A stretch of 57,892 nucleotides of DNA, the filler included, from Dugesia japonica (lineage: Eukaryota), in the NCBI GenBank assembly GCA_001938525.1. It is 4 parts of 4 records of this genome, joined end to end, with 100 filler letters (N's around TTAATTAATTAA, not from the genome) between each part and the next. Parts side by side here need not be neighbours in the genome. Positions count along the whole stretch, not along the records: positions 1 to 14,542 come from MQRL01631459.1; positions 14,643 to 27,622 come from MQRL01634320.1; positions 27,723 to 36,497 come from MQRL01647388.1; positions 36,598 to 57,892 come from MQRL01621197.1. One strand, 5' to 3'. The notes beneath the pieces were generated by a model. It did no database searches. It saw nothing but the letters and a program-made list of their open reading frames with translations, and had not been told where the DNA came from. Position numbers and translations under genes: made by a program. Numbering within the stretch: position 1 is the first letter of the stretch; every line of letters starts with the position of its first letter. This document shows, one piece after another, positions 2,186 through 38,787 of this stretch.

Positions 2186-2437
2186 TTACAATCGCAATTA
2201 TTGCGAGAATAATTGTTGGACATAACCATTGATCGTTTTTTAGAATTCATTTAAAATAAAAGCTTCGATCAATAAATTTTTTAATTGTTTTTTTGAGATT
2301 GATTCGATATTTCGGCTTTGTCTTCGTCAAGAATTGACTTTTTTAAAAGTCAATTCCTCACGAAGTCTAAGTCGAAAAATTCGAAATATTATTAAAAACA
2401 AAAAAAATTTTTGATCAAAGCTTATATTTTAATGAAT
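2186..2437. mobile_element. short Penelope-type hammerhead repeat (family A), back-to-back inverted pair
   Basis: Palindrome at 2245-2437 centred on gaattgactttttt/aaaagtcaattc. Each arm carries a mutated hammerhead core (minus strand TTGACGA-A-GACAAAGCC-GAAA-TA-TC; plus strand CTCACGA-A-GTCTAAGTC-GAAA). Confidence 0.65.
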
Positions 2438-2677
2438 ATTTATATTTGTTATTTATTACTATATTTTTGCATTAGTGTCATATTGAAGATCATGTTTATG
2501 CAAATTGACAACATTTTTCAATCATCTATCAAATAATTTAANTTCTAGTTTTGGGATGTTAAAATTTTCTTTATAGATTATTTATATAGATTATTTATTT
2601 GAAATTATTCTTTTCTTTATTTTGCAAAATTTAATCACTTATAACGTATTTATTTCAAAGTTGAATTTGAAATTTAG

Positions 2678-3056
2678 GAAGTTCAAGGTGATCGGAAAGT
2701 TTTAGAATGCTTAGAAGAAAAAGAAAAAGTTGAAGAACAGATTTCTGCAAAATCAGGAACTCAAAAAGCTAGAACATTACAAGCAGTGAATACTCATATA
2801 TATGTTGGTACTGAAGATGGTGAACTAGTTTATGTTGATTGGATGCCTCAAAAGGATACAGATACTGGGAAATTGCAAACTACAAAACCAGAAAACTTTT
2901 GGAATATTCATGATGGTCCAGTCACAGCAGTTACACGGTCTCCATTTGATAGAACAATAATCTTAGTTGTCGGTGGGTGGGTTTGGAGTTTGTGGAAAGA
3001 AGGCGTAAATTCGGGTCCAATTTTACAGAGTTGTACTAGTGCTAAACCACTTTCTG
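2678..3056 (+). CDS. WDR63: WDR63/DNAI3 internal exon
   Basis: aatttag| acceptor, phase 0 consistent with the previous exon. Encodes YVGTEDGELVYVDW..DTDTGKL...IHDGPVTAVTRSPF..IILVVGGWVWSLWKEGV.SGPILQSC. Donor g|gtatga, phase 1. Confidence 0.92.
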
Positions 3057-3078
3057 GTATGAATTCATAGTCAAAATA

Positions 3079-3079
3079 A

Positions 3080-3144
<65 letters not shown>

Positions 3145-3206
3145 NNNNNNNNNNNNNNNNNNNNNNNNNNNNNNNNNNNNNNNNNNNNNNNNNNNNNNNN
3201 NNNNNN

Positions 3207-3267
<61 letters not shown>
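3079..3267. repeat. (AAT)n microsatellite with internal gap
   Basis: AAT run filling most of a 231-nt WDR63 intron. Confidence 0.95.
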
Positions 3268-3271
<4 letters not shown>

Positions 3272-3287
3272 TTAAATAAACATTCAG

Positions 3288-3502
3288 GCGGAGCTTGGTC
3301 ACCTACTAGGTCTTCAGTGTTTTTCATTATTAGAGCGGATGGTTGCGTAGAAATTTGGGATATAATTGACAAAACACATGAACCAACTCTGGTTCAGAAT
3401 ATTTCTTCGTCATCTGCTTTGACAACTATCAGTATTTATAATTTTGTTAAAAAGCAACTTGTTGGATTTGGTGATATCAATGGTGGCTTACATGTTTATG
3501 AG
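3288..3502 (+). CDS. WDR63: WDR63/DNAI3 internal exon
   Basis: cattcag| acceptor, phase 1. Encodes GAWSPTRSSVFFIIRADGCVEIWDIIDKTHEP..QNI...KQLVGFGDINGGLHVYE. Donor |gtatta. Confidence 0.92.
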
Positions 3503-35118: not shown

Positions 35119-35255
35119 AATTCCTGACGAAGGCAAAGTCAAAACATTGAATTATTATCAAAACCAAAAAACAAATAAATTTTGATCGAAGCATTTATTT
35201 TAAATGAATTCTGACAAATTATTTATGGTTACGTTCAACAATTATTCTCGCAAAT
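35119..35255 (+). mobile_element. family A hammerhead repeat copy (plus orientation)
   Basis: AATTC-CTGACGA-A-GGCAAAGTC-(A)AAA-CA-TT-GAATT, then ttttgatcgaagc and caacaattattctcgca. Confidence 0.65.
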
Positions 35256-35434
35256 GTAAAATTTTACATTGATTTATTATTAATTAATTAATTTTTTAAT
35301 ATTGATTTATTTGTGTTGAATAAATAATTGCCATTGTAAAATTTTACATTGATTTATTATTAATTTGTTTTTATTATTAATTAATTAATTTTTTATTATT
35401 GATTTATTTGTGTTGAATAAATAATTGCCATTGT
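35255..35434. repeat. local tandem duplication (~80-100 nt unit)
   Basis: tgtaaaattttacattgatttattattaatt...tgtgttgaataaataattgccat occurs twice. Confidence 0.8.
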
Positions 35435-36497
35435 AGAACAATAACTAAATTATTAATGTAATAATATTGAAAATTATACTCATAAAAATTATATGAAGTT
35501 TAGAATAAGTAGGATTTAAAGAAAATTGATATATTGAAAACAAAGAATAAATTCTAATATATTTAATATTTAAAACAAACATTTAAACTATAAATCAAAT
35601 CAATGAACATTAAAAAAGAAATTGGAGAGAAACTAATTTCGTAAATTTTCTTATCGTCTCTTATTTTATTTGGCAAGATAATATTTCTTTGTTTAATTAT
35701 TATAATTACTCTTGTTCATTTTTTATCAATAATTATTATTATCAATAAAATAAAATCAAAAGATAAAATCGATTGGAAATTAGTTACCAACGTAATTATT
35801 TTTTCGTATTTTTTAAAAATTTTTTAAACAAAGACAAATAGATGTAAAAGGGAAGGTAAATATATTTTTTCTTTATTTAATTATCTCCAACACGTCTCGG
35901 GAGATAGAATTGTATATTGCNAGGAAATTATACCATTGAATGCAATTTCAAGTAAAATGATAAATGTTGTAGAAGACCTATAAGTTTTCAAAATCATCAG
36001 TAATTGTCAAAAGGTTTCATTGTATTATTAGTACGTTACAATATTTTATTTATTTGTTTTAGTTATCAAGCCAATCAAGTTTTTATAAAGGTACCATAGT
36101 ATATTATTTAGAGGAAAATGAAAAAGAATAATAAATTGAAGTAAAAGAAAATAAAAAGAAATAACAATGATGATACAAAAAACATAACGACGAATGGAAT
36201 ATAGGAAATGTACAATAATTTTGTGTTTATAAGAAAAAATTAATTATCTTTAATCGTTCTAATAAAGTTGGAAAATGATTTTCGTGACAAAGACATACTT
36301 GATGATTTGCTCTTAAAGACTTTTAATAGTGATAAAAGAATTTATTATTTATTTTAATAATTATGTCACAAAATCCTAATGTTTGTTCCTTAATGTTCAA
36401 TAATTATTAATTTAATGGGTTGTGTTAATTTATAGAACTTGTTTAAAGAAATAATTCATTTTAAGGTCAACATCGCCTTTTGCTGAACTTCTACTTT

Positions 36498-36597
36498 NNN
36501 NNNNNNNNNNNNNNNNNNNNNNNNNNNNNNNNNNNNNNNNNTTAATTAATTAANNNNNNNNNNNNNNNNNNNNNNNNNNNNNNNNNNNNNNNNNNNN
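36498..36597. other. artificial 100-nt contig spacer
   Basis: 44N-TTAATTAATTAA-44N. Confidence 0.92.
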
Positions 36598-37345
36598 TAA
36601 AAATGATTTTGCCATGCTGATCACCAATTGGCCGCACGTCAACTTTCTCTAAAACGAAACAAGTGATGGGTCTATGGATCTACTGCGTAAAATTTTNNNN
36701 NNNNNNNNNNNNNNNNNNNNNNNNNNNNNNNNNNNNNNNNNNNNNNNNNNNNNNNNNNNNNNNNNNNNNNNNNNNNNNNNNNNNNNNNNNNNNNNNNNNN
36801 NAAGTTTTCATCATATTTATTTAGTTGTGGATCATTTATTGAATGGCTTCTCACCATTTGAAATGATCTGTGCTTTTATTTTACGGTTCTATTTTCATCT
36901 ATCGCTATCATTAAATAACATTATATGCTTTGTCGCTTTTCAAATTCAAATAAATATTTTGTTTTTACAAAATTTTATAATTTACATGATCACTCAGGAT
37001 AATCAATATTCATTCATAGATTTTACAGTTTCTTAAATTATANNNNNNNNNNNNNNNNNNNNNNNNNNNNNNNNNNNNNNNNNNNNNNNNNNNNNNNNNN
37101 NNNNNNNNNNNNNNNNNNNNNNNNNNNNNNNNNNNNNNNNNNNNNNNNNNNNNNNNNNNNNNNNNNNNNNNNNNNNNNNNNNNNNNNNNNNNNNNNNNNN
37201 NNNNNNNNNNNNNNNNNNNNNNAAAAATTTAAGAAGTGATTACGTTGAAAAATAATTAGAGGAATGCAATACTGTCGAAGGAATGTAAATATATTGTCGA
37301 GACCTATTGCAATGTGTGGACACAAACGTTAAATATTTTGTAAAT

Positions 37346-37555
37346 CATTGAAATAAAAGCTTTGATCAAAATTTGTTTTATTGGGTTTTGATATTAATTC
37401 TAAATGTCGACTTTGTCTAATTCAGGAATTGACTTCAGTCAATAGAATTATTATCAAACCAAATACAAATTTTGATCGAAGCTTTTATTTTTCAATGAAT
37501 GCTGAAAAACAATCAATGTTTATGTCCAACAATTATTTTCGCAATAATTGTACAA
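37346..37555. mobile_element. family A hammerhead repeat, inverted pair with one core deleted
   Basis: Arms cattgaaataaaagctttgatcaaaatttg and caaattttgatcgaagcttttatttttcaatg. Degenerate core on the minus strand at 37396-37430. Confidence 0.65.
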
Positions 37556-37718
37556 TTTTGTAGAATTTTGTGAAAATCATTTCAATTTTTAAACAGAAAT
37601 TAAATATAATCTTAAACTACAAATTTAAAATAGTAAATTTATTCTTAATTATAAATATGTAAAAAACGATGGCAAATGTTTCATATAAATATAAATAACG
37701 TCATTTAAAATGAAACTT

Positions 37719-37769
37719 TCTTGTGATATATTTCAACGGATCAACCTCTGGCGTCATCATCAGACAAAA
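37719..37769 (-). ncRNA. minimal type I hammerhead ribozyme (Penelope-type, family B)
   Basis: Minus strand: stem I ttttgt, CTGATGA, t-gacg...cgtt stem II, GAAA, tata, TC, acaaga. The catalytic core is complete and the palindromic stem III loop is typical of Penelope hammerheads. Confidence 0.7.
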
Positions 37770-38017
37770 TGAAGTGTGAGATTATTCCAACAAAGATTTC
37801 AGCAATTTTATTGAATATTAATTGGATATAATAAAAATTAATACTTTAAATTATTTTGCCAATAAAAAATATAGGACTATAAAAAAATATATAAATAATC
37901 GAAAAATTTCCTTTTATCAAATATTTTTACAAATTAAATAAATTTTAAATGTATTGAAATTAAAAACACATAAAAAATCAAAATTTTCATTCTTTTTGTA
38001 AGTTTATTTAAAAATTA

Positions 38018-38787
38018 TAGACCTGTAAAATAAAAAAAACCAATAAAAACCTTTAAAAAGCCTATTAAAACCTATAAAAAATCTATGAAAACCTATTAAA
38101 ATCTATAGAAACCAATAAAAATCTATAGAAACCTGTAAAAAATCTATTATATTCTATTAAAACCCATAGAAATCTATGAAAACCTATAAAAATCTATGAA
38201 AAACTATAAAAACATGAAAACCTATTTTTAAAAAATTTATGAAAACCAATAAAAACTATAAACCCCTATAAAAAATTTCATTAAAATAAAGAAAAAGCTG
38301 CGATCAAAATAAAATGTATTTGTAAAGAAATTCTAATTTTCGACACTTATCTTCAGGAATATGATGACTTTTTGAAAGATTTAAAATGACAATAGATCTT
38401 TGCTACAAAATTCTTTATCTTTTTATATCGAAATTTCATTGGTCTATTTAAAGTATAATTTTTTTATTTTAAAATCTCAAGAAATTTTTTTTATTAGCAT
38501 TAAAATATTACAAGTTTTTTTAAAAATGTTTTAATTATTTTATTTATATTTATTGTAATTATTGAAAAAATGACTATAAAAATTAATGAAAACCTATGAA
38601 AATCTATTAAAACAGTCTATGAAACCCTTTAAAAAAAATCTACGAAAACCCAAAAAATACCTATAAAAAGTGTATTAAAAACCTATGAATACCTTTAAAA
38701 AAACCTATGAATAGATGGGTTTTAATAGGTTTTTTTGGTTGTTTTAGGTTTTCATGTTTATATAGGTTATTTTATTTTACAGGTCTA
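38018..38787. mobile_element. MITE with 18-bp perfect TIRs and internal aaaacctat repeats
   Basis: tagacctgtaaaataaaa (38018-38035) and ttttattttacaggtcta (38770-38787), with 10-11 nt internal repeats. Confidence 0.8.
38275..38455 (-). mobile_element. family A hammerhead repeat copy nested in the MITE
   Basis: Colinear with 4396-4565. Minus strand ATTC-CTGAAGA-..GTC-GAAA-AT-TA-GAAT at about 38330-38360. Confidence 0.65.

Follow-up and report, generated by a model that had tools for sequence, protein, structure and literature searches.

The question raised by a 57,892-nucleotide stretch of Dugesia japonica DNA (GenBank assembly GCA_001938525.1; four records joined end to end, hereafter the window) is what kind of element has left short repeats with a hammerhead ribozyme motif at six places within it. 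A preliminary description placed these repeats at 2186, 4340, 17702, 35119, 37346 and 38275, found seven ribozyme cores among them and named the family a non-autonomous ribozyme retroelement. The repeats are, in our judgement probably, stubs consisting of the pseudo-long-terminal repeat (pLTR) and tail of a Penelope-like element (PLE), inserted by a Penelope-like reverse transcriptase (RT) together with its GIY-YIG endonuclease. The window is poor in GC (25.6%) and contains many gaps, leaving 55,381 called bases. The family was searched for by self-BLAST of the window and by a profile search built from the repeat arms. The two methods agree on all six loci, which comprise eight arms, with none elsewhere in the window; the profile search returned eight family matches of E 2e-17 or better and a ninth at E 4.1. 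Hammerhead cores are found in seven of the eight arms, as had been counted before.

The arms are divided into two subfamilies, with likeness of 71-81% between and 78-91% within them; neither this division nor the fold-back arrangement of some arms figured in the preliminary description. Subfamily A contains three loci (L1, L4 and L5). L1 combines a long arm on the minus strand (L1a, 2184..2344, located by BLAST and profile), which carries the core, a spacer, an ATG at 2250 and a terminal stem-loop with tail, with a short, tail-less inverted arm (L1b, 2345..2437, plus strand) that is joined to it head to head and stops just past the ATG; the core scan places their cores at 2335-2301, with the predicted cut after 2306, and at 2352-2387. 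L4 is a single arm (35113..35253, plus strand) that terminates within the terminal stem-loop and has the most intact core of the family (35119-35153, predicted cut after 35148), in which G12 is changed. L5 comprises a short, tail-less arm (L5a, 37317..37437, minus strand, core 37430-37396) stopping just before the terminal stem-loop, and an inverted long arm with tail (L5b, 37434..37556, plus strand) from which about 26 nt of the hammerhead interior are missing. Subfamily B contains L2, L3 and L6. The main arm of L2 (4332..4568, minus strand) possesses about 90 nt of upstream sequence, a core at 4484-4449 and a tail, and matches L6 at 81% over 4395-4568; it is followed by an inverted partial arm (4567..4632, plus strand, BLAST and profile), in which 4567-4609 repeats the upstream part in inverted orientation, with 87% likeness over 46 nt to L6 in reverse, and 4610-4632 is unassigned. 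L3 is a single arm (17694..17843, minus strand) with its 5' end at stem I, a damaged core and a full tail, and L6 (38275..38452, minus strand) has the upstream part, a core at 38361-38329 with a 3-nt deletion, and no tail. L6 adjoins a 10-bp minisatellite (38035-38274 and 38589-38711), which is split by L6 and by about 110 nt of AT-rich sequence; the latter bears by eye a faint sense likeness to the subfamily B tail, missed by the profile search.

The seven cores, whose C3 residues lie at 2330(-), 2357(+), 4479(-), about 17838(-), 35124(+), 37425(-) and 38356(-), give the column majority ATTC-CTGANGA-A-GAC-loop-GTC-GAAA-NN-TH-GAAT. The CTGANGA and GAAA boxes and stem II of the consensus first proposed stand as written, and stem I is firm for four pairs; the fifth pairs in only three of the seven cores. 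All seven cores are damaged, as the preliminary description had said, and none passes a strict descriptor, yet the majority letters of the seven, together with public contigs and RNA reads, restore an intact core. The strict motif has no match in 12,000,012 simulated bases of window composition, so that, by the rule of three, a 250-nt consensus would carry it by chance on either of its two strands with P below about 1e-4. A relaxed scan allowing up to 3 mismatches yields 10 matches with five of the seven cores among them; single copies are therefore near noise, and the evidence resides in the family majority.

This majority was extended by a family-wide check, in which one public DNA contig set (run X2) and three RNA runs were aligned to 2100-3050 at 80% likeness, the difference figures being those of the 40 of 153 rows listed. 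In these rows the run X2 majority repairs every core or stem II lesion of the L1 arms: C3 at 2330 (91% of depth), stem II (99% at 2315 and 96% at 2366) and G5 at 2359 (93%). Letters are mixed at N7 (2361), loop II (2370) and H17 (2382), and the outer stem I pair of L1 is restored only by a minority (10% and 36%). The same alignment bears on abundance. In run X2, 20,238 contigs are placed on 2100-3050. The tail reaches a summed depth of 2.17 million and the left core one of 0.11 million, compared with 7.4 for the exon; these sums are no copy number, their ratios to the exon being 3e5 (tail) and 1.5e4 (left core). With a local density of six loci per 55,381 called bases, the depth ratios point to a family of about 10^4-10^5 copies, in line with the abundance claimed earlier.

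The structure of the core is consistent with a minimal type I hammerhead. Stem positions pair in 83.6% of 55 cells, compared with 11-49% for slid partners, and the majority core, at an energy minimum of only -2.7 kcal/mol, folds into stems I and II and nothing else; single cores fold no better than shuffles (z +0.9 to -1.8). Small stem II variants, reportedly those of Lunse et al. 2017, may already cover the present form. The G10.1-C11.1 pair is present in all seven cores, as is an extra base between 9 and 10.1, an A before G10.1 (two rows have nearby indels), and the 15.1-16.1 tetramer is palindromic in five of seven, against a background of 30%, among copies that are related and non-independent. 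No hammerhead family was matched in an Rfam search. Two Rfam matches to mir-4798 (35 bits, cut-off 75) were rejected, as they mirror the L1 palindrome only. Minimal hammerhead ribozymes (min-HHRs) associated with PLEs are described by Cervera and De la Pena 2014 (PMC4209133) as dispersed in thousands per genome, some in opposite-strand pairs, with an extra base between 9 and 10.1 and a palindromic 15.1-16.1 tetramer as hallmarks, and as showing no cleavage as monomers and low cleavage as dimers. The family shares with them the CUGANGA/GAAA core, both hallmarks, the G10.1-C11.1 pair, a stem I of 4-5 bp, the lack of stem III and the arrangement as mostly single dispersed copies with some opposite-strand pairs. 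It differs in that stem II is 3 bp long, against 4-8 bp in the 12 alignment rows compared, and in that opposite-strand cores are separated by about 25 nt, against 100-700 bp in the published pairs (PMC4209133). Core sequence, family-wide majority letters and published hallmarks thus agree with the earlier assignment to minimal type I hammerheads of the Penelope pLTR kind; the majority core is supported as such a ribozyme, for which self-cleavage is predicted from sequence.

The two subfamily majorities are alike in core and stems and unlike in loop II and in the spacer directly behind the ribozyme. That the core is kept while the spacer differs suggests, from a small number of copies, that the motif was subject to selection when the source elements were active. 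The motif would be dead in the present copies, and in the source elements it would likely act as a dimer or with the help of protein. In a fold-back the two cores occupy opposite strands, so that each transcript carries only one of them and no dimer can form within it. L1 in particular folds as a long hairpin (z -9.15) that buries its core.

The ends of the copies are not those expected from cleavage. Seven of the eight arms retain sequence 5' of the cut site, 40-130 nt in length. All three A loci begin within about 12 nt of stem I, and two of the three B loci (L2 and L6) share about 90 nt more and begin at one point. An intron in this upstream part of subfamily B was considered by eye and is unsupported, with no good acceptor. 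Three of the six loci contain inverted arms: in L1 and L5 two arms of unequal length meet head to head as a fold-back, and L2 has the inverted partial arm. Arms sharing a locus are slightly closer to each other (91% and 86%) than those from different loci (78-88% among subfamily A arms), and H17 is common to the arms of one locus (C/C in L1, A/A in L5). Seven of the 15 joints listed, of 81 in total, link a sense arm beginning at 2339-2345 to inverted arms that differ in length. The L5 junction (37428-37452) shows a perfect 6-bp hairpin, after which the 26 nt or so spanning the hammerhead interior are lost, as would happen if snap-back copying slipped across the stem I hairpin; this is a single case.

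At the other end, a terminal stem-loop lies about 90-120 nt past the predicted cut, with its stem kept and its loop varying in all four full tails, although each folds weakly on its own (z -0.9 to -2.2). Measured past the predicted cut of L1a, the ATG lies at 56 nt, the L5a end point and the start of the stem-loop at 89 nt and the long end at 122 nt. The ATG thus precedes the short end by 11 codons and the long end by 22 codons, L5a being 33 nt short of the latter, and in four of the five tail-bearing copies its frame stays open for 21 codons or more. Loose contig ends in run X2 pile up at 2186 and 2195-2196 (343, 161 and 163 contigs, agreement about 0.5); this is a common 3' end with unrelated flanks.

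These features match those of EN+ Penelope insertions. PLE insertions typically possess an inverted 5'-truncated copy and a tail of 30-40 bp at one end only (PMC8557442). In Pen2a of Adineta vaga, the pLTR holds the first 12 codons of the open reading frame (ORF), or 22 with a 31-bp tail, and the insertion also has a 9-bp duplication and a second, shorter pLTR in inverted orientation; head-to-head junction palindromes are common among the Penelope elements of this rotifer (PMC3846280). The present family resembles Pen2/Pen2a in the inverted 5' copy, the junction palindrome and the one-sided tail of 30-40 bp (PMC3846280; PMC8557442), and the 11 and 22 codons before its two ends compare with 12 and 22 in Pen2a. 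Adineta elements have duplications of 8-12 bp at some sites (PMC3846280), and one candidate of 12 bp is found here, bracketing L2 (left copy 4320..4331, right copy 4633..4644); its boundary was chosen afterwards, and nine of 1736 random pairs of window segments share at least 12 letters. Unlike Pen2/Pen2a, the family is without an ORF body and a second direct pLTR, both of which are absent at all six loci, and it is far more abundant. In Schistosoma mansoni, PLEs mask 9% of the genome and few ORFs are intact (PMC6515669).

The Poseidon element PAc of Anolis (Frangieh et al. 2024, PMC11167929) offers a further comparison. Its RT begins copying within a stem-loop, at 111-118 nt of the ORF, with the cut at +26; hammerhead mutants still insert, and the main template is uncut RNA. 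The family is like PAc in having AT-rich targets and, at the element end, a stem-loop some 90 nt beyond the cut, starting here at 89 nt against RT starts at 85-92 nt (111-118 minus 26) in PAc. Uncut hammerhead is retained in PAc templates and would likewise be retained here; such a template fits because seven of the eight arms keep sequence 5' of the cut. The PAc ORF, however, starts inside the hammerhead, while the candidate ATG here is 56 nt past the cut (PMC11167929). By analogy, a Penelope protein would nick AT-rich DNA and reverse transcription would start on uncut RNA at the stem-loop, which follows the hammerhead at a distance of 90-120 nt; copying to near the 5' end of the RNA would leave a stub of 160 nt (A) or 240 nt (B), and a second, often shorter, inverted copy would be added at its 5' end, the copies later decaying.

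Several observations weigh against the Penelope reading. No GIY-YIG or PLE RT domain was found by Pfam in the 291 of 432 window open frames of at least 38 aa that were scanned (141 were dropped by a composition filter), and the sole RVT_1 match adjoins an RNase H fragment and is Gypsy-like. A search with the 22-codon peptide, a weak one, left none of 484 candidates at E 10, and the open ATG frame alone shows nothing, because a second frame is also open. Stem covariation, a check named beforehand, gives no support: none of eight pairs has a two-sided change, a weak test at seven rows, and the two wobble changes in the stems are no excess over shuffles. A duplication of at least 8 letters is found at one locus and at none of the other five. 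The joints are biased by the reference centre at 2340-2345, besides being the 15 of 81 listed. No pile-up of RNA read starts or ends occurs within the element, in libraries of fragmented, poly(A)-selected cDNA. Finally, the S. mediterranea PLE hammerhead given in the PMC4209133 supplement is a different family.

Even if the protein is Penelope-like, the copied RNA may be of two kinds. The stubs may be by-products of full-length element RNA, which we favour slightly within the Penelope reading, or they may stem from short non-coding masters with their own promoter, a passenger like a short interspersed nuclear element (SINE) that the Penelope protein would copy in trans. The second proposal leaves the identity of the repeats as it is and changes only the source RNA; taken by itself it is possible but rather unlikely. 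It would account for the very high abundance and for the clustering of 5' ends (within about 12 nt of stem I in A, about 90 nt upstream in B), but fixed 5' ends are expected equally from copying to the 5' end of full-length RNA. Mobilisation in trans requires no more than pLTRs (PMC3846280), and non-autonomous PLEs are known in Chlamydomonas (PMC8557442). Among the RNA data, 73 reads have a loose end at 2344, with low agreement, and in stranded RNA the reads over the left-arm core are mildly biased towards sense (220:112 and 168:109). No discrete transcript ends are seen in the RNA runs, however, and about 90% of the reads, which come from both strands, continue into unlike sequence, as in passive read-through.

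The other two explanations would change the identity itself, and both are far less probable. A non-LTR retrozyme, whose tandem units undergo hammerhead cleavage, circularisation and re-insertion, is one sense of the earlier name, non-autonomous ribozyme retroelement, and we regard it as very improbable. The family does resemble non-LTR retrozymes in being short, non-coding and poor in GC, in carrying a type I hammerhead and in its relation to PLEs (PMC7229834; bioRxiv 10.64898/2026.07.22.740005), L5b starts near the cut site, and dispersed retrozyme monomers have been described (bioRxiv 10.64898/2026.07.22.740005). Retrozymes are, though, tandem and have canonical cores (PMC7229834; bioRxiv 10.64898/2026.07.22.740005), the latter stated of those of corals in particular (PMC7229834), whereas the core here is minimal, none of the six loci in the window is a head-to-tail tandem, and arms end elsewhere than at the cut. 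None of the 15 of 81 joints listed returns within one arm, a weak point in poly(A) libraries. As the copies are not tandem, do not begin at the cut site and retain their 40-130 nt 5' of it, this part of the preliminary description is unsupported. Slightly less probable still is a fold-back DNA transposon, that is, a miniature inverted-repeat transposable element (MITE) whose inverted arms only resemble a hammerhead. Long inverted arms at three of six loci, AT-richness and very high copy number are typical of such elements, and other MITE-like elements and DDE transposase relics occur in the window. The arms of the present family are nevertheless unequal and end at different points, three loci are single-armed, the candidate duplication is 12 bp long where a fixed short duplication would be expected, no link to a transposase is found, and the motif has the published hallmarks beyond chance. 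Insertion as pLTR-plus-tail stubs by a Penelope protein remains our preferred reading.

The family is likely a new one of an already described class, the Penelope-like minimal hammerheads. Exact-pattern scans of metagenome, prokaryotic genome and viral contigs give no loci, and blastn against plasmids gives no family copy. No paper describing the family was found in the literature searched, although Repbase, Dfam or the supplements of PMC4209133 and PMC3846280 could hold it; in the supplement of PMC8557442, planarian names and three family motifs have no occurrence.

As stated in the preliminary description, the loci at 2186 and 4340 are intronic, the host gene being WDR63/DNAI3. The exon at 2678-3067 has its best matches in flatworm proteins (61% to Calicophoron), and tblastn places exons of this gene on either side of the two loci, at 144-512, 2663-3058, 3284-3505, 6085-6294 and 7158-7247. 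Between the RNA runs and the window, about 8 positions in 390 nt of exon differ (2689-3004), and in the DNA run 19 nt are inserted into the intron at 2639; polymorphism between strains of the species is thus high. Further copies had been placed upstream of IPMK; Pfam identifies an IPK-domain exon at 46586-46819, and 39185-39373 is, judged by its motif, likely the first IPMK exon. Just upstream of that exon, an inverted pair of about 120 nt (37703-37816 and 38865-38985, 74% alike) encloses 1.2 kb with L6 and the minisatellite, and probably represents the ends of a decayed MITE.

Other features of the window are mostly relics of mobile elements. Within the apparent IPMK intron, 91-bp terminal inverted repeats (39474-39564 and 46183-46271, 97% alike) flank a 6.8-kb unit with Tc5/pogo transposase pieces (40789-41187 and 44155-44547) and other relics, and 45776-45993 is a 218-bp palindromic MITE-like element of short GGTCAT/ATGACC-type repeats. 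Fragments of FLYWCH (Mutator-like) and DDE_3 (Tc1-like) transposases are found at 47100-49381. In a decayed Gypsy-like element at 20696-23275, fragments of integrase and RNase H are flanked by 128-bp direct repeats (87%), and a second RT/RNase H relic lies at 32424-32872. An intact open frame of 464 codons (10412-11806, plus strand) has no Pfam match and no usable Atlas match; its product, with a low-complexity N-terminal half and a globular-looking C-terminal third, is possibly gag-like or that of an orphan gene.

The family adds to the PLE hammerheads a further member, with a very short stem II, from an AT-rich flatworm. Its fold-back copies in introns are predicted to introduce about 100 bp of double-stranded RNA into host pre-mRNA. 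More far-reaching, and in our view unlikely, is the proposal that the unit of 160-240 nt is itself a self-sufficient, hammerhead-headed miniature Penelope, multiplying on its own templates in trans to the order of 10^5 copies. If this were true, there would be about one copy per 10 kb, among the densest ribozyme-bearing repeat families in an animal, and the junctions would reveal at base resolution whether the inverted pLTR originates by self-priming or by a second priming event. Formation of the inverted pLTR is an open point of Penelope replication, and the value of the family for it lies in scale: thousands of natural junctions with which to probe how the inverted 5' copy is made and whether elements in vivo are copied from uncut RNA.

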